A DNA stretch of 63,925 nucleotides, counting the filler, from Reclinomonas americana ATCC 50394 (taxonomy: Eukaryota): assembly GCA_048213135.1 (NCBI GenBank). It is 6 parts of 4 records of this genome, joined end to end, with 100 filler letters (N's around TTAATTAATTAA, not from the genome) between each part and the next. Parts side by side here need not be neighbours in the genome. Positions count along the whole stretch, not along the records: positions 26,963 to 36,643 come from PS015019.1; positions 36,744 to 47,152 come from PS015019.1; positions 47,253 to 58,494 come from PS015019.1; 3 more parts are not named here. One strand, 5' to 3'. The notes under the pieces were generated by a model. That model had not been told where the DNA came from, did not search any database, and worked only from the letters and a program-made list of their open reading frames with translations. A program made the translations under genes and the position numbers. This document shows, in pieces, positions 26,145-58,649 of this stretch (the stretch's first letter is position 1; every line of letters begins with the position of its first letter).

Positions 26145-26293
26145 TGAGAGACTGAAGAAAACAATGGAGGACAGCAGACAGCATAAGGACTTGCGGAATG
26201 TTGTGTTTTACTTGCTCCAGCATTGCTGCTAGGGAAGAGGGGAGGTGGTGGTGGTGGTGGTGGGTGCCGACACGCGATTTTCCGTCGCTGGGG

Positions 26294-26816: not shown

Positions 26817-26862
26817 TGCAGTCACAGAGAGTGAGCTGAGAAGAGATCACTGCCTTTCACCT

Positions 26863-26962
26863 NNNNNNNNNNNNNNNNNNNNNNNNNNNNNNNNNNNNNN
26901 NNNNNNTTAATTAATTAANNNNNNNNNNNNNNNNNNNNNNNNNNNNNNNNNNNNNNNNNNNN
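26863..26962. other. Artificial contig linker (N44-TTAATTAATTAA-N44); also at 36644-36743, 47153-47252, 58495-58594, 62384-62483
   Basis: Identical 12-mer giving stops in all six frames, embedded in Ns, five times. Confidence 0.97.
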
Positions 26963-30567: not shown

Positions 30568-33500
30568 ATGCGGCGCGGGAGACCACCACACCAGTGGTGG
30601 CTCTGTATGCTGGCGCTTCTCCTGGCGCTCTCCATATCATGCGTAGTCGCTGCGTACTCACACACACACTCACTCCCTCTCTCCCACAAACACACACACA
30701 CACACACACAGTCACACTCACTCACTCGCTCTCCCCCTCTCTCCTCCCCACAGGCTGCGGATGTTGACGTACGCAGCGCGCGCTTTCGTGATGATCACGC
30801 ACACGTGATCACCAGCTGTGCGGGCGAGGAGCTCACGTGGCGGCAGCGCACCACACACGACAATCAGTGGAGAACATTGCCGTCGTCTGTGTCGACGGGA
30901 TCGTGTCATGATGATGATGATGATGATGATGATAAGCGTGTCATGGAGTGGGATGTGACACTGGAGAAACAGGCTGGTGCCGCCGTATATGTCGGCGCGA
31001 ATGTGGGACCTGTGGCGCTCCTGTTGAGCGCACAGCAGACCGACGTGAGCGAGAAAGGTGGGTTCACTGTTTGGCATCAGGGCTCCTTCGGCATCTCATG
31101 TGTGTGTGCAGCCGCGCCGCCGTCGCTGGTCACCGACGTGGCTCGCTTGAGTGATGACTTGGTGGCGGCTGTGGACTCGGCGCGCGGCTGTGTCGTCTCG
31201 GTGTCGGCAACAGGCGCAGTCGACGAGTTGCTGTGCGGATTGCGCGCGCCACAGGCTCTCCTAACCCTTGTGCGATCGCAGCCGGAAGCCGACACGACGC
31301 TGCTGATTAGCGAAGCCGGTGCACATCGTCTCCTGTCCACGCAAGTGGCCACGTTGCGCGATTCGCTGCAGCTGGTGTTGGTGCTGGCTGGCACGGGAGT
31401 TCGCGGTCACGTGGACGGTCCGGCGACTCGAGCTGAGTTTGAGTGGCCGACACGCATGGCCACCGCCTCTACCTCCTCCTCCTTGGTGTACGTGTACGAC
31501 GGCGCGTTCATTCGAGTTATCGACGTGGACATGCGTACTGTTCGGACGCTGTCTTTTGTGTCGCCACCTCGCGACTCGTACCCCGTCGCGCACGGTGTCG
31601 ACCTCTTGTCTATTGTGCAACCGGTGAGGCACGCTTCGCGAGGCTCCGTAGTTGAGGTGCTGATACTGACAATGTGAGAGTGCACAGCGTGTGGAGTCGG
31701 GCAGTGTTTCGTATCGGCGAGTGGATGTGTTGAGGGAGACAGTGGAGTTCCACTCGGAGCAGCAGCTGCCTCCGGACACTCAAGCAGTGTGCGTGCAACA
31801 TGATGGGACTGTGTGGGCCACGACGGCATCGGTATTTGCTGCTCTCATGAGAATGCCACTGCCCTGAGCAGTTGTTGTCTCACACGTGCGTGCGACAGGG
31901 TGCAATGTACCGAGTGCTGGGCGAAACGGGAATTCGTGGTGGCCCACTATGGCCGCACTCAGCCGGGGTGTCATTACACGGACCCTGTGCAGAGTCTTGG
32001 AGCGGTGACGTTGTCGGCGTCAGTGCTGTCGGCTCCCGCCTTCGTGTTCTGCGGTTGGTGCCGCCAGTTGTCGAGCAGTATGCACGAGCATGGAAGCCGG
32101 CACACATGTCGTCCCACCTGATTGAGGAGAATTCTGTGTTCCAGTTGCGGTAGCAGTTGTTGCGTGCGCTCCCTGTTTTTTTGATACGTGCGACTCACGT
32201 ACTGTCGCAGCGCGCGAGACTATGCAAACGCATGGTCGCCATCGTCCACCGACAACATGAACGACGTGCGAATCGCGGTGATTCTGGCGATTGGTTTTCT
32301 GCTAATCATCCACGTTGCGCTTTCGATCAGCGCCGCTTTGTTGCGTCGCCGACGTTTACGTTATGAGTTGCGTCACTTAATCTCTCTCCTTTCTTTTTTC
32401 TCATTCCGCTGACGCACAACGGCCCCCACAGACGACGGCACGCAATCCAAAAATGTGATCGGCTGTACCGCTACGGCACCGATGTAGACGAGCGAATCAT
32501 GATACCCACCTTGCTCTTCGACGAGAATGGACGGGGTGAGTAGTCGGCCGTGCATTGCGCCACACAGCACCCTGCACTGATGATGGTTTCCACTTCTGTC
32601 ACAGCCGTTCCCGGAACGGACAGTCGCCGCATGGATGCCGTGCCGTCAGTCATTCCCTCCATGTGGACCGTTGTACGTGTCAACTTTGTGCGCGCCGGGC
32701 GAGGTGCGTGTGAGAATACAAGTTACTTTGAAGGCGGTTTAGACCCCTCCCTCAAGTCAGGCACTTGCAGATTTCTGTCGGCGACTGTGGTTCGATCATC
32801 TGTGGCTGCGGATGTTTGCTGGACGTACCAAGGACGTGCTGGCTCGCAAGTCGCATTTTCGTTTGACTGCGGTGCAAACAGTCGCACTTGTATTTGTGTT
32901 GCGTTGAGAGTGAGCGTTGTCACCAGCCGCACGCTCTCACTCGCCATTGACGAGTGCTCTTCGCTATCGCAGCTTTGTATTTGTTAGCATTGCAGTCAAT
33001 GGCTCGCTGTACGTGTTTGAAGTCTCGAATGACGCCTCCAAGATCGTTGCGTTTCCCTCACGCAGCAGATGCATGCGATACTTTCTTAGCTGAGACACCT
33101 CCGCACATCGCAGGCCACCGGATTTCTGGCAGCCTTTGTGGCCTGGATTCCACAGGTGCGTGATTTTGTGACCGCGGCGCATGTGTGCACAGCACTTTGC
33201 TGACGTGTGTGCACCAGCTTGTTTTCCTGTTCCTCTTTCTGCGGACCCGCCGACCGCCAACCATGACGGGTTCGAACTCGTCGCCATCCTCCTCCGTTGA
33301 CGCACTGTTGTGAATTAACTTGCTTTCCCTCCTTGCCCATCCACAGCCGCCCACACCAGCACGTGGCAGCTGACGGCGCGCAATCTCTACTTGGAAGACT
33401 CCGGTGTGTGTGCGCACATTATCAACCCCCTGCGTATTCTGTTCCCCTCATGCGTTGTTGCTGGTCGACAGGCGCACGTCGTGATGCGTTGGAGTCCCCC

Positions 33501-36031
33501 ATTGAGGGCCCCAGCGGCGATGATGGGCCGGGCGCGCCACCGACGGCGAATGCATCTTCATCATCTGCTGCTGCTGTAGGGACAGTTGTGGGAGCACCCG
33601 TACCACACCCGCAACCACAGTCATTGCAACCGACTCCCCGCGAACACGCTGCCACATATTCTGCCGGCACCTTCACCTACTCGTCGGATGTTGACATTAC
33701 ACCACGCTCGTTTGATTCACGCAGTCTCGCTGCACTTCCTGGCCGAATTCGCAAGTCGCTTCCACCACGGTGCGCGTTGCATTTGCATAGAGTCGTCTTT
33801 CATTTTTTCTCACTCGTACATGTGCAATACACAGTCCGTTCCTCGTACCACTGCCCGAGTCGCCACTTCCACCGCAAATGTCGTTGCTGCTGCAGCGCAC
33901 TGCGAGTGGTGTGTCGCAGGAAATGGAGCGCTTCAGCAGCGTCTCCAGCAATGAGCCGGAGGTGGCAGCCGAGAAGCGCGACCAGTTTCGTGATTCACCT
34001 CCCGCCGGTGAGCTCGCCCTGCCCGCTCTGTTCGCTGGCGCCACCGACAGTGTTGGTGCGATGGAGGTGCCAACCCCGTGGGCGCTCGATCAGCAACCGG
34101 AGCTGTATGTTCCCGACGACGACCCAGCATCTTTCTATGACGACGAGGACAATGACTATGATGCTGTTGCTGTCGCGGCGGCAGGACGACCTGCGGCCCC
34201 GTTCCCTCCACACACACCCACATTTCCTCCTCGTCCACAACCTCCGCAACCGCCGCCGGCGCAAGCCACACCAAATGTGAGCGATGGCGCGACTGTTGCC
34301 GGTGGACGACAGGCACCACGCCCGAGATCGGCTGAGCAGCACCAGGCTGACAATGTGGACGGCAGCGACAGCGACAGTGATGTGCTAGTGGTAACGTCAA
34401 GTGTGTGTGTGTGTTTCACATGCAGAAAAATGTTGCTCATCGCGTGCGACAGGAGGGCCAGTTGCCTGAGCGCACCCTGTCTGTGGTGTCGCTCACTGAC
34501 GCGACAGCGTCGGTGGCCGCCGCCCCGTCGCGAGCCAGTGTTCCCACGCTCGAGGCGACTCCATACCCGAGAGTGGATGACTTGGCATCGGATGCCGAGG
34601 GCGACGGTTTGTTCGGCGTTCGCTATCAAACTCGAGTCGGCGACACCATCATCGAGTACGAGTATGAGTACGAGTACACGTACGTGGAGATCGACGACGA
34701 TGACGAAGCGAGTGTGGAGGAGGCGCTGGACAGCGAGTGGGGGCAGTGGCCCACAAATGGTGGCGATGGCAGTGGCGCCGCGAAAGCGCACGAGGTGAGA
34801 GCTCCGCGCGATCGGTCTATGTGCGTGCGTGTGTGTGTGTGTATATATGGACTAATACTCTACTGCGCAGGTGCCGGTTGTGCTTGGCGGTGGTGGCGGT
34901 GGTAGCAGCAGCGGCGCGGTGCAGAACGCCAAGAAGCCTCCTGTGAAATTGCCTCCCTGGCCGCCGCGCAACAGCAACACTGCGTCCGAGTCGGATGAAA
35001 CGGAGGAGGACGAGAGCAATGCAGATGTTGACCAGGTCGTTGTGCATGTGGATGCGAAGAGCAGGGCGACGGGGATGGCGGAGGTTCGACAAGAAGAAGC
35101 AGAAGAGGAGGAGGAGGAGGACGAGGAGGAGGAAGCGGAGGAAGAGGTGGAGGAAAGTGCGGAAGACAATGAGACTGGAGAACCCGATGACGGCGAGTGG
35201 GACTGGGAGTGGGAGTATGTGGAGGAGGACGCTGAGGAGGAGGTCGAGGATGACGACGATGCCGGCGGTGGCAAAACTCAACCTGCCCCGGTTGTGCCAC
35301 CGCTGCCGGCGACTAAGATCACTCCTGGTGGCTCCGTTGCATCACCTCGCTTCGTGCCTTCGGAAACGTGGCCACAGTCATCCCCTCGGACTCCGCGACT
35401 CGACATGTATGTCATTGTCACATCTTCGAGTGTCTGCACGCACGCACGCACGTGCTCACTTTGCACGCACCGCAGAAGCCTCGACAATCCCGGTCGACCG
35501 CTAGTTCGACCGACACTCGCTCAACCTTTCTCTCCAACATCTCCTCCCCCACCTCCACCTCCACCGCCGCCTCCACCGGCGCGGGTCATGGCGGCGCTGA
35601 CCATGGCGTCGATGGCGGCGAGTGACATGGGACCTTTGTCGAGTCCTGGGCGACCAATGGTGCGCACGCCCTCACCCGTGGTGCACGTAGGTGGCCGTTT
35701 CTACGCCAACGATGTATCCTGGGCGCAGGCGCCACCGAGTCCTCGACTGAGACGGCGACCGTTGAGCGATCCGCTGGACGCAGAGCCAGTGGACACGACT
35801 GTGAGTGCGGCTGGCAATGGTCGCGACGACAACTTGATTACCGCGACGCCGCGACTCTCGTCGTCGTCCACCGCCACGACCACAACCACTTCGACCACCA
35901 CAGTTGGCATCGGCGAGCGGCCGCCATTGTACACTCCGCGAGTGTCGCCTCGTCATGGCGACATGGCAGAGCAGTCGCACCAGGGCCACCATTCCCCTCA
36001 TCTTCACCACCACCACCACCACCATCAACAG

Positions 36032-36062
<31 letters not shown>

Positions 36063-38646
36063 CACAGCATCCACTCTCTGCTCACCAGCGACGAATATCA
36101 CCCAGGCGATCCCCCTTTCCGTCCATGTCGTCGCTGCCGTCTAGTACCACGCGTGTCGGCGATGGAACTCCGGTGCCCCACGCGTCGGGAGGTGTTGCCG
36201 TCAGTACGCCATTGCCGATGGACTCTCCGTCTCCTGTGACGCACACACCGCAGGCGGTTGTGCCGCCCAGTGGCGGGACTGGACCGCCGTCAATGAGTCG
36301 CATGGTGCTCGTTGTGCCGCGAACAGATACGGGAATTCGTGTTGCTGGTGCCCTCGTCGATCATGCCGTGCAGGTGCGTTGCTCACAAGTGACACTATCC
36401 GCATCTCTCTCTATTCCTCACTTTCTCATTGTGCGCACTACAGACGGTAGATGAGGATGACGAGGACCCGGCACCGTCTTTGTGGCGCCCGTTCGAGAGG
36501 CAGCAGACGCCACTGGGTTCGCGCCGCTCAATGACGGCCACCGACAGCGTGGTGTCGGATCGGGATGCCTCATCGACGCGGGCTGCGGCGAGTGCTCGCC
36601 CTCGAAACTCATCGACAGTGGCACCAGCTGCTGGATCTCACGTNNNNNNNNNNNNNNNNNNNNNNNNNNNNNNNNNNNNNNNNNNNNTTAATTAATTAAN
36701 NNNNNNNNNNNNNNNNNNNNNNNNNNNNNNNNNNNNNNNNNNNCCAGCCGTGCAGAGACCACCGGAGCGGAGGTAGCCACCAACGTGGGCAAGAGCGGGC
36801 GCGACGGCACAGTTGCCAGGTCCGCACCGACGGCAGCACCAGCCGCGTCCACTTCTGCACCTGTGGCTACCGTGGTGATACCTGCGCCGTGCGTCGGCGA
36901 CGGCACCGGCGACACCTCTGGTGTCGGTTCCTGCGTAGACGGCGGCATCACACCAGATGACGTGTCCTCCGACGGCTCAGACAACTGGTGCGACGGTAGT
37001 GGCGGCTGCTGTTCTGCCTGTTGCTGCTCGATGTTGAAGTGCCGATGCGATGGACTGCGCAGTCGACGCCACTGTGCACAAGAAGAAGATGGGTGAGTCA
37101 CATAGAGAGAGTGGGAGCCAAGGCGCGCCTCACACGCACCGCATGTCGATTGCGATGGCGTCGCTGTGAAGGGTCAGTGTTGTCGTCGTCATGATTACTG
37201 TCGTCTCGGCGCTTGCCGTCCACCTCTCCCTCCGCCGCGTCGTAGTACGCGTACGCACCGTCGTCAATGTCATCATCATCATCGTCGTCATTGCCAACAT
37301 CCACATCGTCAGCATCCGAGTCAACAACAACAACTGCCACAGGTGGCCGCCGCGCCGCAACCGACGGTNNNNNNNNNNNNNNNNNNNNGACGACACTGAT
37401 TCCACACGAGATCAAGTAGGGATACTGGCAGGCGCACCACACCTCGTCAGTCTCATGAAGTGGAAGCAATGCATCCGCACACACAGAAAGACGCACCGCA
37501 TAGTTCGGACTCCACCGCAAGGTGCAAATGATGGAGGTGGTGATCGCGGCCGCCACTGCAGCATAGACCAGTGCAAGCCAGAGGAACTCCAACCAGCTGG
37601 GGAATGGCGTTGCGAAAGATGCATCCGTCGCGTCTCCACGACAGCGCGCCACCACAAAGACAAGCCAGCTAGCCGCGCACACTGCTCCGACGACCGACAT
37701 GGAGTACGTTCGTTCGGGAAAGTGCCACAGAGCGGCACCGACACCAACTGCCACACTGCCAAACACCAGCAATGAGGTGACCGCGAAGAGCGCACGCAGA
37801 GTCCAGGTGCGCCACCACGGGGTGATCTGCAACGTACAATGGAGAGCCGTAAGCTGAGAAAAGAAACAGGGGCTCTTGCACACAGAATCAACTGACTAAC
37901 GCACCGCCAGGAGCGAGCTTACAGGTGGCCGCACTGCAGCGGGGTCAGCAGCAGGCGAAATCGGCAGGCCAAACTCTCCCGGCACACCACCAGGTAGGCG
38001 TCGGCCGGGAGAAGGGACGGNNNNNNNNNNNNNNNNNNNNNNNNNNNNNNNNNNNNNNNNNNNNNNNNNNNNNNNNNNNNNNNNNNNNNNNNNNNNNNNN
38101 NNNNNNNNNNNNNNNNNNNNNNNNNNNNNNNNNNNNNNNNNNNNNNNNNNNNNNNNNNNNNNNNNNNNNNNNNNNNNNNNNNNNNNNNNNNNNNNNNNNN
38201 NNNNNNNNNNNNNNNNNNNNNNNNNNNNNNNNNNNNNNNNNNNNNNNNNNNNNNNNNNNNNNNNNNNNNNNNNNNNNNNNNNNNNNNNNNNNNNNNNNNN
38301 NNNNNNNNNNNNNNNNNNNNNNNNNNNNNNNNNNNNNNNNNNNNNNNNNNNNNNNNNNNNNNNNNNNNNNNNNNNNNNNNNNNNNNNNNNNNNNNNNNNN
38401 NNNNNNNNNNNNNNNNNNNNNNNNNNNNNNNNNNNNNNNNNNNNNNNNNNNNNNNNNNNNNNNNNNNNNNNNNNNNNNNNNNNNNNNNNNNNNNNNNNNN
38501 NNNNNNNNNNNNNNNNNNNNNNNNNNNNNNNNNNNNNNNNNNNNNNNNNNNNNNNNNNNNNNNNNNNNNNNNNNNNNNNNNNNNNNNNNTTCGAGTGGCT
38601 GGTGCTGGAGCCGTTTGTTCTCTGGGCAGGTACGAGTCGCCCTGTG

Positions 38647-38679
<33 letters not shown>

Positions 38680-38804
38680 GTGCACGCTGCAGTGTGTGAG
38701 ACACTGATTCGCTGCGATCGCTCACAGCCGCCCTCAATGGAACCTTCTGGCGAGGCTTGCTGGGCAACACGATCGAGCACGGCACAAAAAAGTCTAGCAA
38801 TTAA
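30568..38804 (+). CDS. Polycystin-1-like membrane protein, short paralog (signal peptide, NHL beta-propeller, TM1-3, long disordered loop, 4 more TMs); segments 36744-37368 and 37389-38020 lie inverted in the assembly
   Basis: NHL-like LAGTGVRGHVDGPATRAEFEWP; TM1 at about 32270-32340; DHLWLRMF, SIAVNGSLY, TGFLAAFVAWIPQLVFLFLFLRTR; ends ISCGISVV+FEWLVLEPFVLWA..GLLG..*. Confidence 0.72.
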
Positions 38805-38908
38805 TTCCAAGCATAAACAGGGCTAATGAGGAGAATGGGATAGAGAAGGAGATACACACACACAGAGAGAGAGAGAGAGAGAAAATGAGGGACTGCAGCC
38901 GTGTTGGC

Positions 38909-41900
38909 TCACGAGGCAACACCTTGCAGAAGACCGCCGAGCAAGTGTTCTGTGTGCACACGCCATTCTCGTTAAGAGGTAGCGAGCGACCATTGGCTCG
39001 ACGGTGACAAAATCAACTCACCGTTGAGACTCTGCAAGAGGAACATGGCGGGCTCCAAGAAGAACGCCTCGTTGGCCAAACTTGCGAGCGACGTCAGGAT
39101 TAGCGTACGCTGCGGACCAGTCGGTGAGTACAATTGCGCACGCAGTGTCTGTGTGTGAGAGAGAGATCGACAGACGCACCGCTTCGCCCTCGGTGAATGT
39201 GGATGTATATAGCAATAGGAACCATGTGTACAGGAGTGTGAAGAGCCAACAGAGCGCATAGAAAATCTGTAAACGCAAACAGAAACAGTGTCAGCGTTGG
39301 CTCGTCGAGCAATCATGTCTGCACTCCAGAAAAACACATACCCGATCCATGAATGGAGGGAATCTGTGTTGCACATATCGCACATGGCCGCGGTGAGTGA
39401 GACAGCTGACAACACACACAAGTTAGAGGGAACTAACACACCGCTGCACGTCTTGATTCACGGGATCGCCGCGACTGCGCATACGCAGCCACACGAAGAG
39501 GACCCACGCGGCACCGAATACGGTGGAGAGCAAAATGTATTCGAGCCAAGTGGCCTGGAAAGTCGAGAAGAGCACCAGCACGAACGCCGTAGCCAGTGCA
39601 AACATGAGAAAACTGATAACCAAGAAGCCGGTGAAGAACTTGCGAGAGCGCGCAGGACTGCGATCTTGCACCAAATGCTGCGCACGGCCGGATGCAAACA
39701 CGGTGAGTCGTATGAACGAACATATGCGCGCGCACACACACGCTTGCATGCACGCACCAATTCGCCATCGCGCTCCTCGACATAAGTGACTGTCTCAACA
39801 ATGGCCGACGAGTCAACCTGCTGACCCGCCGATGGAGTCTCGTACGCCGCCATACCGGCTGCCACCAGAGGGTCACGGCGGACAGTGTACGCCGACGACC
39901 GGCGCCGGCGACGATGGCGACGCACGCCCGATGTCGGCGACAGAATCTGCGACTCGTCAGCCGATGTGGCATCCGAGAGTGGAGCCTGCGCAGAGTGTGT
40001 GGGTTTCGAATACGACGCCAAGCAGCAGCAACAAATTGTAACAAACCGGCGACGGAGCAAGCGCGCCGTATGGTGTGAGGTACGCATTGTCGCCTGGAGT
40101 GACGAGATTGTCGGCTGATCGTCGCGCCAGCGATGTCGTCGCAGTGGATGTGCTGCGATTGCTTGCCGACACTCGAGAGCCATCACTGTCGCTGACCGAC
40201 GAGGCCGCCGATTCAAGTGGTGTGACAGTCAAGCGAACTGGTGCGGTGCCGTTGGCACTTCGTCGTGTCGTCGATTGCGCCCCGCCACGTGTCACCGTGG
40301 GTATCTGTCACAATAGCAAAATGTGGTGAGTACTCAGTTTTTTTGTGTTGGGTGGGAGACGACAAGTTGCAAGCGCACCGGCGTGGGCGTGCCGTCGTCG
40401 ATCGACCACTGGCTGCTGTACTGCGACTCGCTACCGAGATCCTGCAGAGCCAGTCCAGGAGTCGCACCGTACGACCGTGGAGTGGCGAGACTCTGGTCGA
40501 TACCCAACGTGGACATTGATTCGACACTTGTGCAGCGCACCACGACGCCTGGTACCGCCAAGGCGTCGGCGTTAGCACTGCTGCGACTGCTGACAACAAT
40601 GGCACCGGCAGCCGGCGGTGGAGCCGAGTTCGGCACCGTCGCCAGTTTGAATGCTGGGCTGCCGGGCGGTGCACTGTCGTTGCGCACCAGCTTGCGCGTC
40701 GAGCCCGGCGACACAACTTCCGCTGGCACCACCAAAATGGAGGCCGGTGACACGGGGCTTGTGGCGGCCTTGATGCTCTGCAACGACGATTGCCGATACA
40801 GCGGTCGAGAGGCGGCCACCGTGGGCGGATACATGCGAAGCGGGTCGCTGTGCATGCTGGCGCCAATGCCCACTCCTTCGCCAGCAGGTGTGCCATTGCC
40901 GCCGCCGCCGCCACCACCACCACCAATAGTACCACCAGCACTGTTGAGCCCCATCATCGGTCGCGAGGTTGGCGTCTCGGCCGGCGTGAGCTGCGGGCGC
41001 ACTGCCTTGGGAGACAGAATCGCGTCACCATTGAGCGACGTGAGGCTGCCCGGCAAAGCAATGGCCAGTTTGCCACCCTGCCACGCAGCACGCCGGCTGG
41101 CCACCGTACTGCTGCCGTCGTTGCCGTTGTCGAGTTCACTGCCGTCGACTCCTGCAAGTTCACCGGTCTCGCCATCGGTCTTGGCACCCCGACGAGCCAC
41201 CGTGGTGGACGTGCTGTACGACAGAAATGCACAAGGTCAGTACATGCACAGCAGGCGCCGAATTGCAAATAAACATGCTGTGCCACAACGCACCGCACGC
41301 TGTGCGTGTCGCCAGCCACAGCCAAGGTCATGGTCACCGATGTGTCGGCCGGGTTCGACAGCTGTCGCTCGGACTCATCGGAGCTACCCGTCGAGTACGA
41401 CGAGTACGACTCGTCGCCGTCAGCGCTGTCCACCACGTCCAAGATGGGCGTACTGGACACCGACAGCACTGGCATGGGCGAGCCGGTCGGCGAGTGCATC
41501 AACTGCAGCGAGTGGTGGGGCACGAGAATGTCGACCGGGCGCCACAGAGTGGATGGCGACATGGGTGCACCACGTCGATGCGGTGAGCCAATGTCGACAC
41601 CCACGGGGAAAGCCTGCGCGTGCGAGAGTATGCCGGTGAGTGTTGCCTCGTTATTACAAAGTAATGGGAGAGCGGTCAGTCAGTCACGCACCTGTACACC
41701 CTGACTTTCGGTGACTGACAGCTTGCGACGACCGCGACTCTCGACCTGATATCCGTCGGGCTTCATCCGCGACAAATCCCACGTGACCGAGACGGTCGGT
41801 GACAGCGGCGATTTCGGAGGCGAGGTCACCTGACCCACGCCAAGTGACGACTTGCTGCGTCGCCTGCGTCGCTGGTGCGGTGACTTGGAGAACGGAGAGC

Positions 41901-44900: not shown

Positions 44901-47900
44901 GTGTCTGCGCGAAAAAGCACGCAAGTCAGTGATATTGTATGGCCAGCGACGCAAGGCAGAGAGATTGAACGCACCGTATTTGAGCGGATGTTGACGAGTG
45001 CGCATAAAGAGGATCATCATGACAAGCTGCGCGGCATCACAAAGTGAGGGGACGCGCAAGTAGTAGCAGGGGAAAGGGAGCGCATGTAAGAAAGGATGTC
45101 TCACCTCGGGAATANNNNNNNNNNNNNNNNNNNNNNNNNNNNNNNNNNNNNNNNNNNNNNNNNNNNNNNNNNNNNNNNNNNNNNNNNNNNNNNNNNNNNN
45201 NNNNNNNNNNNNNNNNNNNNNNNNNNNNNNNNNNNNNNNNNNNNNNNNNNNNNNNNNNNNNNNNNNNNNNNNNNNNNNNNNNNNNNNNNNNNNNNNNNNN
45301 NNNNNNNNNNNNNNNNNNNNNNNNNNNNNNNNNNNNNNNNNNNNNNNNNNNNNNNNNNNNNNNNNNNNNNNNNNNNNNNNNNNNNNNNNNNNNNNNNNNN
45401 NNNNNNNNNNNNNNNNNNNNNNNNNNNNNNNNNNNNNNNNNNNNNNNNNNNNNNNNNNNNNNNNNNNNNNNNNNNNNNNNNNNNNNNNNNNNNNNNNNNN
45501 NNNNNNNNNNNNNNNNNNNNNNNNNNNNNNNNNNNNNNNNNNNNNNNNNNNNNNNNNNNNNNNNNNNNNNNNNNNNNNNNNNNNNNNNNNNNNNNNNNNN
45601 NNNNNNNNNNNNNNNNNNNNNNNNNNNNNNNNNNNNNNNNNNNNNNNNNNNNNNNNNNNNNNNNNNNNNNNNNNNNNNNNNNNNNNNNNNNNNNNNNNNN
45701 NNNNNNNNNNNNNNNNNNNNNNNNNNNNNNNNNNNNNNNNNNNNNNNNNNNNNNNNNNNNNNNNNNNNNNNNNNNNNNNNNNNNNNNNNNNNNNNNNNNN
45801 NNNNNNNNNNNNNNNNNNNNNNNNNNNNNNNNNNNNNNNNNNNNNNNNNNNNNNNNNNNNNNNNNNNNNNNNNNNNNNNNNNNNNNNNNNGCAGCCAGAC
45901 TGCCAGCCATGCTTGCTGCAACGAGGCTCTCAAAGATGCCCCCGAAATGTGCCCGGTGCTGAATGGCGTTGGCGAAAAAGCTTCCGAGAATGAACCTACA
46001 GAGACAAGTCAGCTCCGTGTCACACTTGACACACGTGAATGTAACCTTTCACACTCACATGTAGAGCAGCGTGAGAGCCTGCAGGGTGTTCAGTCGCAGT
46101 GTGTTTCGAGTCGAGATATGATCGTCGCGTGGGTCGTGCTTCGGCGGCCAGAACACAATCAGCCACAGATGCTCGTGCCGCATGCGAACCTTGAAGTCTG
46201 CGACAGAATGAGACATCAAGCTCAGAACCTACTGCTAGCTCCAGCATGCCGATTGCGGCAACATCAACGCACCGTTCCACATGTCTTTCGACTTGACCTT
46301 GATGGTCGTGATGAAATCGAGGTCACGCTTGGCGGAGACAATCTTGTCGGACCCGGGAATGGCTGCGCGCGTGGCAGCTCAAATCAGAAAAGGTGACAGA
46401 GGGACGGTGAACCACCATTGCTGTTTGCTGACCTCGTCCGTCCATGTCGAACAGCAGAGTCGGCTGCATCACACGTTCGTTGGCATCCTTGCCCAGTTCG
46501 TGAATCCGATCAGCACGATTCATCGCCGATGTTGCACTGCAGATGAACAGGGGAGAGGCACGGCGTCAGCACCATACAAATGCGTGCTTTACGAGTGCTG
46601 GCACTCGCAGAATAACGCAACATGGCACGCGCACGCCGTGTAGTCATCTGCATGATGAGCCAGAACGAGACCACGTACAGTACAGTGGCAAAAGAGAGCA
46701 CCGCCAACGGAATCCACGAAGCGGATTCGGGTGCCTTGAACGGATTCACAAACTCAAACGACTTCCAGATGGAGGTGATGAGCGAAAATCTGCACGAGTC
46801 ACAAGCAGTGCCGTTAAGCATGGTCGACTGATCACAAATAAGGCGATGCGCTCACAGGAGGGTGACGCAACGCGGCAAAGACACTCAAATGATCGCACTG
46901 ACACACGGTGGCGGAATCAGACACAGCCACTGGAACGCAGCCATCTGCATCCCACTGGCGAATGCGCGGGTTCCAAAACGCACACACGGCTGCAAGGAAT
47001 TTGCATACGTGGTGTAGTTGAGCGCAAGGGGCGGCTACAAGCGTTTCCAAGTGCACATGAACGCAACTGGTCTCCAAACTGAGCGATCCTGTGTTGCCGA
47101 CCGCCGCCGGAGCGTGTGGCAAAATGAGTTCGATCGGTTGACGGAGATGGTGNNNNNNNNNNNNNNNNNNNNNNNNNNNNNNNNNNNNNNNNNNNNTTAA
47201 TTAATTAANNNNNNNNNNNNNNNNNNNNNNNNNNNNNNNNNNNNNNNNNNNNAACGTGAAGCGGGCCGGACTGGCTCTCGAGTTCCACTTCCAGTACATG
47301 ACTCTGTATGCATGCACCGAGCACGGTGGTTTAGATGTCACGTGGTGTTGTTAACCAGAGAATTGACTGTTGGTGCGTGTGACGCATACGAAACTTGCAG
47401 TGCGGCACCGGAGGGAATCAGCATGTGCAGCGGAGGTCGCTGCCAAGATGTGACGCGGGCAGCAATGCTGCCCTCCGTCATACCGACATCATCGGGCAAG
47501 CTGCGCGGCAAGTGCACGGCGTGTCCAGTGGGAAGTGTGTCTGACAGACGCATGTCTTGCGTACGGAGATGGCGTGTGTCGTGTCGATGCACGGCCAGTC
47601 GTGCCACCGGAGTCAAGATGACACTCTGCGCATCATAAACTTGTTACACAAACAGGGAGAAAGAAGATGAGTGTGGCAGCTCAAACCTCGTGTGTTTGGA
47701 GGTTATTCAGCAGAGACAATGACACGGCCGACGTGGAGTTGACCAGACGCTCGGACTGCTGGCTCCAGAAATCCAACAATTTTGCCGGTGACCAGTGGGC
47801 GCTTTCACCAAGCACCACGGTACGTTGCAGCTCGGGAGCGCGATGAACTCGCTGCGCGTGGTGGAATGTGAGGAAACCAATGTACACATGCTGGCAGCAC

Positions 47901-50900
47901 CATTCACACACACATACGCACCTCCATCAGCGGGCTCAGGGCACTCATGGCGAGTTTCTGAATGTCGAGTCGACGAGGCCACGTCGAGCAGTGCGTCAGG
48001 CGCAATAGAATTTCGGAGGCCACATTCATGGTGGGCTCATCGAGCTCCTCCATCGATCCAGACACCACAGCATGCCAGGCGGCAAGCTGCCGTACGTACT
48101 CGTTATCCGAGGCACTATCGCAAGCGACCGACGTGGCCACGGTTCCGAGCAGTTCGGCCCAGTCACGCCGAATCAAACGGCGCTGCATGAGAGCAAACAG
48201 AGTGCGCAAGCATGAGTAAGAAGGGAGTGAGAAACGGAGAGAGAAAGGAGTGTGCGCATCACATGCGGCGGTACGTACCCGGCTCAGTTCATCAGCTGGC
48301 CACTTGCACGAGCGCACTTGCGCGTGCGGCCAGGCTTGATCACGAATGGGCGCACGACTATCGTTTGCCAATGAATGGGTTAGCATGGTGGTGGGGAGCT
48401 ACGCGCACAATGTTGAGGGCATTACTTCACCTGTTTTGAGACGGCCACAGATTGAGCATGCGAGCAGTGCTTGTGATGGTGGCCAAGAGTGCGGCCTGGT
48501 TGCCCTCGCGTTCCACTTTCTCCACCTGTTCCAGCAGGAGACTTTGTCGAATGTCGCACGCTCGATTGGACTTGGATCGCGATGTATCTGCCAAATAGTG
48601 CGCAGTTGAGCCACAGTGCACAACATGCACTAACCGTGTATAGTGTACTCACTGGCGATCGAGACTGCCGCAGCAGTACTCGTGTGTGGAACACGCTCGT
48701 GCACGTGCACAAAGCGCTGCACCACGTGCTGCTGACCATGGATGTCCTGAATAAGAACACGCAGCTCCAACGCGTCATCCGGTCGTCGACCTATATACCA
48801 CAAGTAAGCAAAGAAAGCGGGAAAAAATGAAGAATGTGCATATCAACAAACCTGGCGGCAAGCGCACAGCAACGTGCGAATAGTGTGCGAGTTCTGTCAA
48901 CGGGTACTGTGCACTGTTGGCGTCGAACGTACTGTCCGAAGAGCCACTGGCCGAGGCCACAAACAGCTGTACTCGATGTTGTATGCTCTGCGAATGCCAG
49001 CGTCGGAAATGAGGGAAGAGGGAAATGAAAGAGAAAGGAGGTGAGTCTGTGTGCGTACCGACGAGGACTGTGAGTCATCCGACACTGACACGTGGAATTC
49101 GGTCTCCAGCGCGACGCCCTCCAGCGGAACTGTACAAGGAAGAACAAAACAACACGCACAATAAGGTGAGTCGCCGCGCTGTGAGGGCGAATCGAGGCTT
49201 TGTAACGAGAACGCAACAAACTGATACGCGGAAGCCAGTAGCACCTGGCGATCGCGGACGCATTGGCAGAATCACTTGCAACCGTGCCTCTGCTAGCGAC
49301 ACCAACTGAACGAGATGAAGTGCGAGTGAGGAATACATGGGAGACACGCTCAATGGTGACAAAAAGAGCGAGGCGAGGCACTCACCGCAGGATCGACAAC
49401 ACTGCGGGCACGAACTTGTACGCGATAGACAACGTTTGGGAGAAACGACGACGCCGGCAACACCAGAGTGTTGGACTCCAATAGGCCGGAACTCGCTTGC
49501 CACGACGATGCATTGGTTGTGCTGTCATCGCGTACTGACCATTCATACTCGACGGCTGTGTCAAACACAAGCACACATTCCACACGAGGTGAGTGAAGGA
49601 TAATGATAATATGTGTCGAAGTGCATCGACAGCCACACCTTGTGAGCAATGTTCATCGGCAGCCGTGGTCAATGATCCTGCCACCACGGTGACAAGGCCG
49701 GCGCGCGGGAATACCAGCAAGTTCGGCGAGCCAACAATATGAACTGCAGGCACAGCCTCCGTCACGCGGACGATCTGCACAAGTACCGGCAGTGAGATTG
49801 TGTGTGCCAGAGAGAGAGAGAGAGAGATAAAGAGATAAACAGGGAGAGCCTTGAAGCGCACCTCAACCGATGTAGTCGCCTCTGCGCCGAGAATATTCCG
49901 CACAGTGAGCAGGAACTTGAAATGCGATGCGTCCAGCGGAAGCTCGAACTCGACAACAGAAGAGTCGCTCGAAGCCGTCAGTGGAACTGCACCACCGTCA
50001 CCGACGCTCCACGAGTACGCCAGGCCAAATACACCACCACCGGCCGACATGCTGCCACTGAGAACGACGCGCGAGATGCACGACGCGATTGTAGGCGATG
50101 CCCCGGCAATCACGGCCAACGTTCCACCGGTGCCGGAGGCAGAGACGACTGCGGTTTCGTCAAAGGCGCGCACAGTTCTGTCTGCACGTGCCACCACAGC
50201 ATGCTCTCGCAAGCGAATAACGGAGCCGACTCGCAGCAACGGACGCTTGTCGCCCGACATCTCCACTCGCAGAACCGAGTTCGAGCGCCAGGCACACTGC
50301 GGTTCCGATCCCAGAAGCAACAGGCTGGAGGCGTCAAACAAGGTGGAGCACGACAACAGTCGGTCCGTCGCAGCACCGCTCGAGACGGACACAATATCTG
50401 CGGCAAACTCGATTTCCAGCGCCATGAGATCCGAACTCAACGTGGCCGTGAAGCCAAGTGAGCGCGCTGATGCGAGGAACAGACAGAAAGAGGTGGCAAG
50501 TGAGTTGTCGTGCGAGGAGATGACGACACGTGTAACACAGGCACACCACGCACCAAAACTGAAGGACGCAATGCGTTGCTCTGCCGCATCACCCGGCCAA
50601 CGCGCACAGAGCGTCCACATACCAGAGTCGCTTGTGACCGACACCGACGACGAAGAAACGGCAATAGCACCGACGGGCACGACGAATGAGGTGGGCGACA
50701 GTGGCGTCGGCAGCAGTGACACTTCGGCGTTGCTGTCGCGAGCAGAGCAGGAGGCACAGCTTCGCGCCACCAGCGTCGCAAGCATCACTTGCTCGACCGA
50801 GTACGCATCATCGGCGGTGAACGTGAGCATCGAATCGCCGGTCTTTGGTGCAATCGCTTCCTTGTCTGCCTGAGTCACTCGCACTGCAACACGCACTCGA

Positions 50901-53900
50901 TTGTCAGAAAAAATGGTGCATCTACAGCAGCACCGGCACGCACGCACCGACTGACACTTGACCAAGATGAGTTGCGCCACTCAACGCATTATCGTCGTTG
51001 CCACACAACCATCGTCGGCCAGCAGCCTCGCTCGTGAGTACATCAAATGAGGCCACCAATGTCGATGAACTCAGAGTCGCTAGTGACGTTGAGAGAACGT
51101 CGCTTGCGAGCAACGTGTGGCGGCCATCACTGCCCTGCTGCTGTTGCCGCTCCGAGCACGGCACCGAAGACAGTACCACGGATGCAAAAGGCAGCAAGTT
51201 GCAGCCTCGGACAGTGAAAGTGGCTTCGTTGCCCGCGACAAGAATGTGCGGCGACACAAAGACTCCTCTCGGTGCTGTGTATACATGTGTGTTGTTGAGC
51301 GAAAAAGAATGATTTGCTGCAGGCGCAAAAAGACAATGCACCGTTGCCGGGATCACCGATTGTACGAAGCACGGACGATCCCTACAAACACGCGAGAGAA
51401 AAGAACAGCATGTGAGTGTACGTCGAGAAGCAGAAAACCACGGGCGCTTTTGCAGGTCGTCGCAACTGTTGCCGAGAGCAGAATGCCACGGAAACGATCG
51501 TACACCATTCCCACAGTGTCCGGCAGCAGAGAGATCAGTGGCGTGGAGGAACCTGATATTACAAGGATCGAGCGTGAGTGTCAAAAACATTACAAAGTCA
51601 CCACCCGAGTACGCTCACCATCGGGTGATATCTGGCGCAATGTGGCGGCAACCTGGCGACAGCAATAAGAAACACGGAAGATACGTTAACCTTCAAGTGA
51701 AGACACGCACCAAGTCAAGCACAAGCACTGATTCCGCTGGTCCCTCTGTCAGTTGATGCACCGACAATGGCAACGACGAGTGTTTGTTGGCCGTGGAAAC
51801 TTGCACGACGCGCATGGTGCTGGGCGTCGAGGCATCTGGTGGAGAGATGAAGTCAAGAACAAGAGAATCAGCAGTCAGTTGTACACACACGCGAGCGAAC
51901 CGTGTGATGATGACAAGGCTGTGTGCTTGAGTTCGTGACTCTGTCTGTCAAAAAAGATGACCCGCTTCTCACAGGTCACCGCTACGTGCTCCGGTGAGTG
52001 TTGAGACAGCCACGAGCGCACATGGTCGCCTTCAATCAGTCGCAATCGGCGATTATCCTGCATGAGCAAACAGGGCAGTGAGCGATCCACACACAGACAG
52101 TGCCGACTGCACAGAGACCCCAGCGTACCGTATCAACCACGAGGATCGTCGAGTCTATCACGGCAACTTCGCTGGGCGTGCGGAAGCTCGCCACCTCCAG
52201 TGGACCGTCGTAGTCGCCGGGACGATCGCGGTGTCCAGCAACGGTACTCGTGTCGCCACGCGCAGACACACGACGAATGGCGTGGTTGCCGCTATCGGCA
52301 ACAAGCAGGCTGCGAGAGGCGCTGTCGAACGCCATACCACGGGGACTATCAAAGAGAGCGTCTCTGGGGTTTCCATCTGCATGACCACGACGACCTCCAC
52401 CCGCCAGCACGGAGATGGATCCGTTGCCGCGAATGACTGCGATGCGATGGAGGCCGGTTTGCGCGACAAAAATGTCGGCACTGCGCTCATCCAGTGCCAT
52501 CGGTCCATCCGCGGGTTGCGCGAGAGAGACTTCGCACACTGAAGGCATTCCTGCGCAAGGGAGAGAAAGTGGGTCGACCTATCGTGAACTCATCGCACAC
52601 AGAGTCAAAACGTACCAATGGCAATAAACGTCACCAGCTCCACGTGATCCTTGTCGCCGTCCCACTCCGCACACACCGCATGAGTTCCCTCACGCACATG
52701 TTGCGTGTCTAGCGACAGCACCAGCTCTGTCGATGTTGCCAGTTGCACGGAGATGTCACCGCGCATACGCGTATCGCATCGATAACTCGTCGAGAGGAAC
52801 GCAGCAGATGGCGCAACCAGGCCTTCGCCGCGAATAGTTACTTGGCCAACCGCGTGCCGGGGCATTGCGGTCGTGCGCAACGTAGCCAGACGATCTGCGC
52901 GGAGACCGCGAATGGCGTGAGATGGGAAGAAACACAAAATAACATTGTCATTTCTTGGCGCTCTTACGCAACAGAGTGAAACGGTGGACACCAACTCCAA
53001 CGGTAGTCGTTCATGCCAGCGAGTGCACAGGGAATATCTGCCGGAACGAAGAGTGCCAGCAGCCGGCAAGTGGAAGAGCCGGGAACGTCCATCCAGACCC
53101 ACATCGCCGACATTGAGCACGAGGGTCGAGTTCGCCTCGCTGACGGTGTCCTCCGCTTCTTCGCAACTTGGTGCCATGGTGAGCACGGCCGTCAGGTGCT
53201 CGCTCGTGAGACCACAGCCGACAAGTGTCAACGTGTGGCCGGCATCAGTGGTGCTCGACAGTGCGATTGTACGGGGATACGCCACGAGCACATGGCCTGC
53301 TCAGCACTCAAGTGTGAGAAGACCGCGCGAGAAAAAAGCTTTGGCAAGAGGAGACGGAATACAAACCCGGAGACACCATGCGAACATTGCTGGAACCCTG
53401 TGCGTAGCCGAGGTGAGTGCGCTCACTACAGGGGGAAAATTGCAGCAGTGCAGCACACTTCTCTCCAACGCACCTCGTGAGCCAAAAAGTATGCAACTCC
53501 GCGTGACGAACGAGATACCGACGTGACGTTGTTGGTCACCAACGTGTGGTGCGCGAGCACGTTGAGAACGCTGGTGATGGAGGTGGTTGTGACGTGCGTC
53601 GAGAGCGAGTCTCCAGCAAATGGCAGCACGTTTCCTGCACCGAAAAGCACAAGACGTGAGCATCTTCCATCGCCTTCACGCATGCACGAGTCACATACTG
53701 ACCTTGCGGCGTAAACATGCGGAGCTGTGAGCTGCTGGCGTCGACCAGGAGCACGCCGAGAGAAGGCACCGACTGGAACACAATGCTGGCGGGCGCCTGC
53801 AGCATTCCGTGCAAGCAATGCGCCGACGCTCCGTTCGTCACATCGCACCGACGTGCGAGAGTGATGACAGCACCTGCACATCACACATTCGTGGGAGGAG

Positions 53901-56900
53901 GAACGACAGCGTGTGACAGTGCCGCACCAAACCACACGCACCAGCTCGATTGATCTGCCGCAGCGCATCGTTGCCAGTGTCTGCAACTAGAATGACGTCG
54001 GCCGTCCCGTCGACTTGGACGTCGCTCGGCAAGTTGAACAGTGCGGTGGAATAGGGCCCATCGAGAAATCCGGGGATGCCCGTGCCCGCCATCGTTGACG
54101 TTACGCCGCGATTGGATCCATGCAGACGAACACGACGGACCATGTGATTACCACGGTCGGCCACGAACAGCTCGCTCCCATCGCTCGACAGTGCCAGGCC
54201 AGCAGGGTCGGAGAAGGACGCCGCGGCACCGGTGCCGTCATTGGATCCACGATCTCCGCTGCCGCTAAGCACCTCCACTTGACCTGCGCAAAAAATGAAT
54301 ACGCATTTTTCCGCAACCACAGAAGCATGCCGGGACGAACCATCGGCAAGACGAACGGAATACACCGCATGGTGGCTGCGGTCGGAAAAGTACAACGTGT
54401 CCTGGTCGTCCATGGCCATATGTGCTGGTCTGTACAAGGGAGCTTGATCGTCCTCTGCACTTCCCACCAGCGGAATTGCGTGGCCTAGCGAAAAGATCGA
54501 TTCCTATTTAGGCACCAGGTGTGTCTGGTTCGCATGGAAAGTCAGTCTCACCAGAGGAAGCAATGCGCCATATCCGACCCGACACCGAGTCAGAGACCAA
54601 AACGTCGCCAGAGCGAGTCTGGCGCACAGCAGAGACACTGGCGAGTGGAACTCGAACTGGCTGCTCTGCTCCGATGACGGAACATGTGTGATACGTGGCT
54701 ACCAAGAAGAAAAAGGCACACCACCAAGCAGTGAGTTGCATGTTCGCCACCAGACAGTCGGACTGATGCACACGCACCAACGAGCACTGTGGAGACCCAC
54801 TTGTAATCGTCCGCAGGGCCTCCGAGTCTCGCGCACAGTTCATAGGCACCCTCGCGGACTCCCGGGGGCAAATCGAGTCGCAGGATCACCCGCTCCTCGC
54901 CCAGATACGAGGCCACCGTCAGTGACGAGCCCGGCAGAGGCAGCGCCAGAGACGGATGACACACTCCTGCTGTGATCCACAGCGCTTGAGAATCGCGCGA
55001 CAGATCCGGCAAGTGTGTGCCCGACAAGAGCAGTGGCTGCGATGATAACGGGGCCACCACTGAAGGAGCCACAGATGCAACATGCGCCAAGGTCGACACT
55101 GCGAGAATCGCGGACATGAGCAACCGACTGGCATCAGCATCGGTGAGAGAGAGACTGAGCGTACAAACCGAGGTCAATCATGCCGACAAACGTGTACGAG
55201 TCCGACCGTGCACCCCATCTCAAACAGAGCGCAAAGCGGCGACTGCGGCGGATGCTGCCGTCCCAGCCGAGCATCGACGATGAGAACCAAGCGTCGACTT
55301 GGATATCGTTCTCTGAAGATGACAGGGTGCGGAAGTTCCATGGTGGACGCGCTGATGACGACGAGACGGTGTTCGCCTGAACGACACACGTGTGGTCCGT
55401 GTGCACCGTGAGCGCTTGTCCGGCCTTTTCTCCAAACTGCAGCGAGCCGAGACCGGCACCGACAATTGTTAGGCGCTGTAGCCGCTGCACCTCCAGGAGT
55501 GTTGGTCTCACTTCGACAATGTTGGCTGCGCCCGTCACACACAGAGAGAAAGAAAGAAAAAACAACAACTGTGAGCGAATGGCACCGGCTCGGCCAAGAG
55601 CTGTGCGTGAAGCATCGGCGTACCGACAGTGAGCGTGCCAACGTCGATGGCAGACTCATGCTCCCAGTCTAGGCAGACGTGGTATGTGGAGCCGGCGGTC
55701 GCCGTCGCCGCCGCCAAGTAAACTGTCAGCTCCAGTGTGTGCTCCTGCATGGCAGTCACCTTGGCGGGTACGACGCCGACAGTGTCGGTCCACGCACTCT
55801 GACATGCACCCCGCGCGAGAGCCGCTCGAGTAGGGCTCCCGCGGAGTGCACCGCACGACGACAATCGAATCGTCTGGGGACCATCGCCAGTGCCGAGAAC
55901 AGGGGGCGAAGCGATGTCCAGTAGGCCTGCCAGCGAGATCGAATGAGTGACAATAGCCAAATGGAGGGTAATTGCTTGACTCGAGCGGGAAACACACACC
56001 ATGATGCGAGAGCATGTGCAACTGCTGTGTCGCAGTGGAGCTGACCAGCAGCCATGACAGGCTTCGAGCACCACCGGCGACGCTCCATGGCAGCAGCTGC
56101 ATCGTGTCTGCAATTGACTCCATCGAGGGGTCGCGAGCTCCGTGAATAAGTAGGCGACGACTGGCCGCCTCCTGCGTTTCGCTGTGGCGTATTTGCGGTG
56201 CCGGGCCGAGCTGCAAGACGAGCGACGATCCCTCCAGCACTAATCTAGCGTCGCTGATCTCGGCAGGGAGCATTGGTGGACTTCCGTCACACGCAACCGA
56301 CTCCGCCGCCGCCGACTGAATCGATGCCTGTGTCCTACCGTCATCATCGATTACCACCAGAACACGTGCACCCTCTGCCGTGGTCTCCAGGAAGAGCTGT
56401 TGCACGTTTCGCAGCGGACGTGGGAACAGAACGATATCCGTTCCGTGCACTGTCCACCGTGGTGCTGCCCCCGTCGACTCCAAGTGCATCGTGTGCACCA
56501 CGTGCTCCTTCGCGTCGACCACGAACAGGGTGCCGGTCGACGAAAAGGCCAGCAAGGAAGGCTGCGACAGAGCACTCTGCTCGCTGTACAAGACAAAGGC
56601 TGCGTGTATGTTGACAACAAGTGAGCAAAACAGAGTGCAGAACGCGAGGCAGAGAGCAACAGAGTTGTCTTGTGGTCGACGGCACCTGCTGCTCCATCCC
56701 GCTCAATCAGCCACACGATGCCGACAGAGGCTTCGCTCACGAATACCGTCGACGATGTGTCGTCGACTGCCACCCCTGTGGCGCGCAGGGACCGACCGTG
56801 CACACGCACTTCGGTGGTCGACGCACTGCCCGCTCGGAGGGCGTACACGGGGCCATCTAGGGCGCTCACAAAGGCATCGCCAGTGGAACGCGATACAGCC

Positions 56901-57558
56901 ATTTGTGCAACTCGTATCGGCGGCACGCCGGTGAGTGCACACAGATGCAGGCTCGACACGATTTCTGCGCACGCACGAGCCAGCGATAAGTGATCGAGAT
57001 GCGCCAGCCATCGCCAGGCACCGTAGAGACGCAACCAAAAACGCCCAAAGGCCGTCGCCTTGCATCGCACACTGCATACACAGCGTTCTCGCGTAGCGCC
57101 TGTGCATCGACAATCACTCGCCACCTGGGCTTCCTGCTGCCAGCACCGCATAGTGACGGCGCAGGCGGCATTCGCCACGCCTGCACTGACGCCGTGGACT
57201 CAGCCTCTCCACATCTCCCCACCAGAGCCACGTGGAACGGCGCATGTGCATCGTCGTCGCCAGCGACATCGTCAAGCAGCATCGACTGTCCTGTTCTGGC
57301 CATGATCCACCCAGGCGATGCTGATGATTACACGAACATGTGAGTTTGGCGTGGGAGAGAGAGAGTGTGTGTGTGTGTGGGGAAAGGAGGCGAGAGTGGT
57401 GGGAATGGGAGAGAAAAGGTGTGCGCACCTCGTGGTGGCCAAGCAGCAGGAACCTGCTGCTGCAGTTGCGACGTGGTACTCAGTGCACATTCGATGAGCA
57501 CCACCACGGTGGCAAGAGCAATGGCGAGAGCGACAAAGCGCGCTCTCGGTAACCGCAT
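38909..57558 (-). CDS. Giant polycystin-1-like receptor (signal peptide, NHL propellers, IPT/TIG-like domains, REJ-like region, GAIN/GPS, about 7 TM, long disordered loop)
   Basis: Signal MRLPRARFVALAIALATVVVL; NHL repeats at about 52130-52550 and 53950-54480; GPS CAFWNPRIRQWDADGC...CQCDHLSVFAA at 46872-46989; EHLWLIVFWPP; FFANAI; C-terminal EAFFLEPAMFLL..*. Spans a gap and one linker, so single-gene status is inferred. Confidence 0.78.
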
Positions 57559-58494: not shown

Positions 58495-58649
58495 NNNNNN
58501 NNNNNNNNNNNNNNNNNNNNNNNNNNNNNNNNNNNNNNTTAATTAATTAANNNNNNNNNNNNNNNNNNNNNNNNNNNNNNNNNNNNNNNNNNNNAAGAGC
58601 AAGGGAGGAAGGGAGCAAAGACAGAGACGAGGGTCGGAGAACGACTGGA

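Follow-up and report, generated by a model that had tools for sequence, protein, structure and literature searches.

A tail-to-tail pair of PLAT-less, channel-less receptor genes in Reclinomonas americana and its possible kinship with polycystin-1

Can the N-terminal membrane part of polycystin-1 exist as a receptor of its own, without the PLAT domain and the channel? This question is raised by two convergent genes of Reclinomonas americana ATCC 50394 (GCA_048213135.1). They lie in a stretch of 63,925 nucleotides, filler included, which is called the window here. Gene 1 is on the plus strand and is the short form. Gene 2 is on the minus strand and is the long form. The original prediction described them as paralogous polycystin-1-like receptors that lack both PLAT and the channel domain. 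We found that the two genes are a real tail-to-tail pair of old paralogues. We consider it somewhat likelier than even (about 0.55) that they are stand-alone relatives of the N-terminal membrane part of polycystin-1, which would make them members or cousins of the PKD1/REJ family that have neither PLAT nor a channel. To our knowledge, little is understood of what the first five helices of polycystin-1 do. Should the homology hold, this would be a natural protein with the TM1-TM5 core (TM, transmembrane helix) alone. It could show the core's own role and the way in which the animal protein came together.

The two genes converge as predicted. The stop codon of gene 1 (TAA, 38802-38804) and that of gene 2 (TGA, 38911-38909) are separated by 104 gap-free nucleotides. 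Gene 2 spans ~18.6 kb, and gene 1 spans ~8.2 kb. Translation from both proposed starts, at 30568 and 57558, gave a Met and a hydrophobic, signal-peptide-like stretch. Comparison of the two halves of the locus by tblastx gave colinear matches on the expected strands. Alignments were scored by Smith-Waterman against 1,000 composition-preserving shuffles, with the spliced parts assembled by script. The TM1-TM3 parts of the two genes scored 198 against 32.3±5.0 for the shuffled sequences, none of which (0 of 1,000) reached 198, and 51 of 157 residues are identical. The C-terminal parts gave a weaker, colinear alignment (score 65 versus 32.9±6.1, reached by 1 of 1,000 shuffles; 34 of 119 residues identical). 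The tblastx matches and the core alignment uphold the claimed paralogy, and the similarity between the two proteins on which that claim hung is well above the shuffles for TM1-TM3.

Four intron positions are common to both genes among the chosen splice pairs. The first follows the TM1 exon, the second separates FD..GR from DF, the third falls midway through TM2, and the fourth precedes LV[F/M] of TM3. The introns between FD..GR and DF are both 235 nt long, yet they cannot be aligned. Their equal length was therefore rejected as a sign of related introns. The duplication is old, because the common introns are unalignable.

The membrane core has a shared order of elements. TM1 is followed by ~75 conserved cytosolic residues ending in DF..R...HLWL, then by a TM2-TM3 hairpin, a giant disordered loop in the cytosol, a TM4-TM5 hairpin with RxRGD, TM6, an amphipathic helix with LEP, and a tail of 14-25 residues. 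All of the motifs listed in the original prediction exist in the sequence. They are in order across the cores, except that gene 1 has its R[CS]RGD hairpin on the minus strand. HLWL had been stated to come straight after TM1, but a conserved exon intervenes, in which 16 of 34 residues are identical. This exon is the best-conserved stretch of the pair, with ...PTLLFD..GR common to both genes. The spacing in the tail motif LN....GLL is five residues and not four.

Neither gene has a gap in the interval between TM1 and TM2, where the introns measure 65 to 235 nt. PLAT is absent here, because the interval has no gap and introns of at most 235 nt are too short for a PLAT exon. Both genes stop 14-25 codons past the helix with the Glu-Pro motif (the EP helix), and the other gene lies 104 nt beyond. 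The channel domain is absent after the EP helix, because the stops come this early and the genes converge. No Pfam match to PLAT or PKD_channel was found among 270 open reading frames (ORFs) scanned across the window. On both absences the original prediction stands. Its count of about seven helices stands in part: hydropathy gave six clear helices, and the seventh, the EP helix, is below the threshold. The helices have basic residues on alternating flanks, which fits a predicted topology with the N terminus outside and the C terminus inside.

Gene 2 is broken by a gap in TM3 (Table 1). Comparison with gene 1, which is gap-free at this point, suggests that probably only a few residues are lost. 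The next acceptor of gene 2 (45026) coincides in position with that of gene 1. The loop that follows is a chain of long ORFs on the minus strand, and it splices in frame to the hairpin exon. Across 38.9-57.9 kb, the minus strand had the highest coding score in 54 of 59 non-N scoring windows. For gene 1, at 30.5-38.9 kb, the plus strand had it in 19 of 25 scoring windows.

The ectodomain of gene 2 carries further evidence. Its GPS scored 47.6 bits against a cut-off of 22.5 and lies directly before TM1. No GPS was found in gene 1 by Pfam or by a custom REJ-GPS hidden Markov model (HMM). The GPS is thus confined to the long form, as predicted. The PKD/Ig-like module lies in a 532-aa ORF at 50980-49385. 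A phmmer search with this ORF against 1.84 billion representatives gave 30 proteins at E<=0.001, with E values from 5.5e-10 to 8e-4. Pfam was run on 14 of these 30 proteins, and 11 of the 14 carry REJ. Where a match was a single stretch, the aligned part lay directly upstream of the Pfam REJ domain. The custom HMM was built from 6 REJ-GPS proteins and run against 995 ORFs of the window. Its positions 3-186 match the module (E 1.2e-25), and its positions 913-950 match the GPS ORF (E 4.3e-6). Pfam K319L-like_PKD also hit the module, below the cut-off (E 0.0055). In the Atlas, REJ clusters ranked first for the ectodomain ORF (0.88-0.89), which is a lead only. The same 532-aa ORF had 0 homologues among proteins of 932-2660 aa. 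Between the module and the GPS, ~700 residues of ectodomain have no assigned domain. The REJ label of the original prediction is supported in part: the module that lies upstream of REJ domains is matched, and the REJ core was matched by neither Pfam nor the custom HMM. This ectodomain evidence makes it likely that the pair belongs to the PKD1/REJ family, a membership that is putative for the membrane core.

The ectodomain of gene 1 is small and gave no Pfam match. Its stretch resembling the NHL region of gene 2 (31375..31503) remained blank in Pfam even at E<=5. An ORF at 31960-32118 (+), directly before TM1, contains a Cys-Gly-Trp-Cys stretch. Such stretches are typical of PSI domains; this one is unmatched in Pfam.

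In polycystin-1, PLAT is soon followed by a motif of the His-x-Trp-Leu type, TM3 leads into a long cytosolic loop, and TM5 has Trp-Glu-Pro close to its end. HLWL...ANA and LEP presumably resemble these motifs. The order of the core elements presumably fits that of polycystin-1 as well. The core is putatively, and on balance probably, homologous to polycystin-1 TM1-5.

Both genes would encode anciently duplicated, convergent multi-pass surface receptors in type I orientation. The long form would have a signal peptide, an NHL beta-propeller, the PKD/Ig-like module, ~700 further residues, and a GPS before TM1. The short form would have a small ectodomain without GPS. The long form may be cleaved between Leu and Ser of His-Leu-Ser and may act as an adhesion or mechano-sensing receptor. 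Its stalk and core could relay the signal to partners docked at two sites, the giant loop and the conserved segment next to the membrane. The receptor would contain no built-in channel. The two forms may act as receptor and co-receptor, as the original prediction tentatively proposed. A bolder proposal is tentative, and we think it more probably wrong than right. It holds that TM1-TM5 of polycystin-1 would be an ancient receptor module able to work by itself, which stands alone here, in a thinly sampled lineage of eukaryotes, without PLAT and channel and with an extra helix hairpin. Its long form would be cleavable, its short form would lack the GPS, and the two possibly cooperate. If it is true, animal polycystin-1 may have arisen when such a receptor was fused to a TRP-type channel. 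The pair would then be a simple system for asking about the role of polycystin-1 TM1-TM5.

The points that weigh against kinship with polycystin-1 concern the core, the ectodomain, the gene models, and the state of gene 1. The core is linked to polycystin-1 by motifs of presumed resemblance, and no computed match joins the two. Pfam at E<=10 gave only chance-level matches for 16 exon ORFs, the GPS excepted. Searches of PDB sequences with the HLWL exon, a two-sequence HLWL profile, the hairpin exon and the 532-aa ORF gave nothing relevant; these queries, together with a GPS protein of Stylonychia lemnae (P0032), yielded a single chance match (E 0.75). The HLWL exon had no usable match in the Atlas. 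The 532-aa ORF has no close relative among the 1.84 billion representatives, with 0 matches at E<=1e-10 and a best match of 31% identity (E 5.5e-10). The REJ core positions of the custom HMM were unmatched in the 995 window ORFs, and Pfam REJ gave no match even at E<=10. The exon models are picks among enumerated GT/GC-AG splice pairs and are predicted from DNA. The seven-helix count and the inside C terminus are not secure, with the EP helix below the threshold. The blank tests of the core (Pfam, PDB, and Atlas) would suit lineage-specific multi-pass receptors that borrowed the GPS and the REJ-associated module. The core would then be unrelated to polycystin-1, and HLWL and LEP would be chance or convergence. 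P0032 has no similarity to the cores outside the GPS, which also suits this origin. GPS/GAIN modules combine with different membrane parts, according to the accessible part of one account (PMC3321182). However, the blank searches used single short exons and are weak tests, and the REJ-associated module indicates the PKD1/REJ family. The order of GPS, TM1, cytosolic segment, His-x-Trp-Leu, TM2, loop after TM3, and Glu-Pro also presumably matches that of polycystin-1. We consider an unrelated core rather unlikely. The pair could instead be receptors like the adhesion G-protein-coupled receptors (GPCRs), with a GPS and a bundle of seven helices in which a tethered agonist would trigger G-protein signaling. 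The GPS directly before TM1 fits this, and so do the ~seven hydrophobic segments with the N terminus out and the C terminus in. However, no exon matched a 7tm profile at Pfam E<=10, a test that is weak for exons this short. The first cytosolic loop is a conserved stretch of ~75 residues, and it is TM3 and TM4, not TM5 and TM6, that the giant loop connects. The seventh helix is weakly hydrophobic, and the short paralogue has no GPS. Receptors of this kind are very unlikely here.

The remaining points concern gene 1, which the original prediction had treated as an intact, colinear gene. As assembled, its TM4-TM6 exon is inverted, and the gene contains one linker (36644-36743) and two gaps. The RCRGD motif is at 37646-37632 on the minus strand. 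The exon is 330 nt long (37826-37497) and has proper splice sites, with cag before it and gtgcgt after it; the donor context matches that of the gene 2 donor after TM6. It sits in a 632-bp contig (37389-38020) bounded by a 20-N gap (37369-37388) and the 569-N gap (38021-38589). The codon-usage score turns to the minus strand at 37.1-37.8 kb. Gene 1 could be rearranged or chimeric. If it is a rearranged pseudogene or an artefact of contig joining, there is one functional receptor and no pair. The inverted exon, the linker and gaps within the gene, and the change of coding strand all favor this. However, every exon found has an open frame, proper splice sites, and conserved motifs despite the old duplication. 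Flipping the one 632-bp contig restores the full order of hairpin, TM6, gap, and last helix. In scaffolds, a small contig flanked by gaps is often placed in the wrong orientation. The inverted exon is most simply read as a misoriented small contig, and it may alternatively be a true rearrangement at 37389-38020. That gene 1 is not intact seems to us improbable, and we retain the reading of two paralogous receptors related to polycystin-1. The neighboring 625-bp contig (36744-37368) is ambiguous. An Asp-rich minus-strand reading is best at 37.1-37.35 kb, and the plus strand is slightly better at 36.9 kb.

Some further searches concerned single proteins and one metagenome locus. P0006 was compared with longer proteins and gave 3 matches, none of which has PLAT or the channel. 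A homologue search with P0033 returned only itself. A scan for the juxtamembrane exon pair gave one match, the metagenome locus L001. It has 67% GC and lacks PTLLFD and HLWL, and it was rejected as chance.

Table 1. Features of the two receptor genes and linkers of the window
Feature	Position	Strand	Basis
Gene 1, start Met and signal-peptide-like stretch	30568..30654	+	Translation
Gene 1, stretch resembling the NHL region of gene 2	31375..31503	+	tblastx, 46.5% identity over 43 aa
Gene 1, TM1 exon, GPS not upstream	32209..32366	+	Splice enumeration, hydropathy
Gene 1, conserved juxtamembrane exon	32432..32535	+	tblastx, splice enumeration, alignment
Gene 1, DF..R...DHLWL and first half of TM2	32771..32897	+	Motif, splicing, alignment
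Gene 1, rest of TM2 (..VNG..), outer loop, first half of TM3 (exons 32973-33045 and 33114-33155)	32973..33155	+	
Gene 1, last part of TM3, then long low-complexity loop as far as linker	33218..36643	+	
TTAATTAATTAA linker inside gene 1	36644..36743	.	
Gene 1, paralogue of TM4-TM5 (R-C-R-G-D) and TM6, one exon	37497..37826	-	632-bp contig
Gap of 569 N removing the start of the last helix of gene 1	38021..38589	.	
Gene 1, visible end of last helix, V-L-E-P	38590..38629	+	Motif
Gene 1, tail exon and TAA	38728..38804	+	
Gene 2, predicted start Met and signal-peptide-like hydrophobic stretch	57472..57558	-	Translation from 57558
Gene 2, ORF with NHL repeat (beta-propeller blades)	53841..54503	-	Pfam NHL E 4.4e-11, TEN_NHL E 5e-5
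Gene 2, second NHL-repeat ORF	52039..52578	-	Pfam NHL E 5.7e-6
Gene 2, PKD/Ig-like module of the kind preceding REJ domains	49850..50392	-	phmmer and custom HMM
TTAATTAATTAA linker inside gene 2, between REJ-like region and GPS	47153..47252	.	
Gene 2, GPS with four Cys, two Trp, and His-Leu-Ser cleavage triad	46868..46987	-	Pfam GPS E 2.3e-12
Gene 2, post-GPS stalk and TM1 exon	46622..46789	-	Splice enumeration; hydropathy 2.27
Gene 2, conserved cytosolic juxtamembrane exon	46433..46536	-	tblastx, 48.6% identity over 37 aa; 16/34 identical
Gene 2, DF..R...EHLWL and first half of TM2	46059..46197	-	Alignment, 13/47 invariant columns
Gene 2, remainder of TM2 (..ANA..), short outer loop, start of TM3 into gap	45891..45995	-	
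Gap of 776 N in TM3 and intron of gene 2	45115..45890	.	
Gene 2, end of TM3, then ~5-kb cytosolic low-complexity loop	39758..45026	-	
Gene 2, TM4-TM5 hairpin ending R-M-R-S-R-G-D	39438..39677	-	
Gene 2, TM6 exon	39180..39266	-	
Gene 2, last helix, F-L-E-P, weakly hydrophobic	39022..39109	-	
Gene 2, short tail exon and TGA	38909..38949	-	
Linkers N44-TTAATTAATTAA-N44, five identical	26863-26962, 36644-36743, 47153-47252, 58495-58594, 62384-62483	none	

The window is draft sequence whose called bases are 58% G+C. Short GT-AG introns are numerous in it, and there are 20 N runs. The TTAATTAATTAA linker is a six-frame stop spacer, and we take the N44-TTAATTAATTAA-N44 form to be of the type used for joining contigs. 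Because these linkers are present, the record is read as a chain of contigs of ~4-11 kb. The sequence by itself gives no adjacency across the linkers, two of which lie inside the receptor genes (36644-36743 in gene 1 and 47153-47252 in gene 2). Five of the chosen introns start with GTTGCG and not with the usual GTRAGT; they are at 32367, 32898, and 33046 on the plus strand and at 46621 and 46871 on the minus strand. Such donors may be a preferred variant in this genome or a bias of the intron choice.

Stop triplets across both strands of the whole window numbered 1,748 for TGA, 372 for TAG, and 301 for TAA, so that TGA is 4.7 times as frequent as TAG. Many long ORFs that share one frame are separated by a single TGA. 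A reassigned stop codon was rejected, because short in-frame introns account for the TGA-split ORFs and a code change is therefore unneeded. The Pfam match of an ADP-ribosylglycohydrolase in the window also went against reassignment. It skips ~27 codons around a TAA and only 4 profile positions.

That ADP-ribosylglycohydrolase lies at 5077-7763 (-) and consists of three ORF pieces (Pfam E 1.8e-21 to 6.9e-7). A galactosyltransferase-like ORF (E 4.9e-7) is found in the same interval and on the same strand. The region at 17650-27393 contains a WW-domain protein (+). A WD40 protein is at 20601-21605 (-), and Spc25 is at 22902-23549 (+). A papain-type protease fragment is at 24718-25062 (-), and a HIT protein is at 26232-26821 (-). 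A gamma-glutamyltranspeptidase fragment is at 26911-27393 (+), just past a linker.

How does the pair compare with known systems? It resembles PKD1 and the sea-urchin REJ proteins in its large ectodomain, its PKD/Ig-like REJ-associated module, and its canonical GPS before TM1. The sea-urchin PKD1-family proteins have 1-11 TM, with PLAT in 5 of 10 and a cation channel in 4 of 10, and family members with 1-2 TM are known, as far as the available part of that account goes (PMC1934368). By the same partial account, the family is also like the pair in having some members without PLAT or channel and a variable TM number (PMC1934368). The pair differs from polycystin-1 in several respects. Here, ~75 unrelated conserved residues replace PLAT after TM1. 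The TRP-like six-helix channel part and a Pfam REJ match are lacking. An extra RxRGD helix hairpin, a cytosolic loop of >1000 residues, and NHL repeats in the ectodomain are present.

A brown-alga protein is another point of comparison. Ectocarpus Esi0130_0068 is a male-gamete protein of 1427 residues with REJ, GPS, and 6-7 predicted TM, according to the accessible part of its description (PMC4700764). That part gives an E value of 4e-30 for REJ and places the sole channel match inside the REJ domain (PMC4700764). Compared by description, it is like the pair in having a non-animal REJ-type ectodomain, a GPS, and a short part with 6-7 TM (PMC4700764). It is unlike the pair in having no giant loop, because it has only 1427 residues, and the accessible part of its description mentions neither NHL repeats nor a GPS-less paralogue (PMC4700764). 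GAIN domains occur in Tetrahymena and Dictyostelium, according to the available part of another account (PMC3321182).

P0032, from Stylonychia lemnae, is 2706 aa long. It has Laminin_G_3 and GPS. Beyond the GPS lie TM1 and then two TM pairs with a long low-complexity loop separating them, and the protein ends after the second pair. This layout is that of a GPS receptor lacking channel and PLAT. It is like the pair in having, after the GPS, five hydropathy-predicted helices arranged 1+2+2 around a long loop, and in giving no PLAT or channel match in Pfam. It is unlike the pair in that only its GPS aligns with gene 2 (score 54, z 5.7), with z of -0.3 to 0.8 for the membrane parts. Adhesion GPCRs share the GAIN/GPS before the first helix, the ~seven helices, and possibly the logic of a tethered agonist. 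They differ in that the pair has no 7tm profile match, a long conserved first cytosolic loop, and a giant loop that is misplaced for a GPCR.

A limited search of the literature did not find a description of a PLAT-less, channel-less seven-segment core combined with an NHL ectodomain and a GPS-less paralogue. Non-animal GPS/REJ receptors with a short multi-pass part are already known, as are sea-urchin PKD1 members without PLAT or channel. What is mainly new is a core of seven segments, its giant loop, an ectodomain with NHL repeats, and the tail-to-tail GPS-less paralogue.

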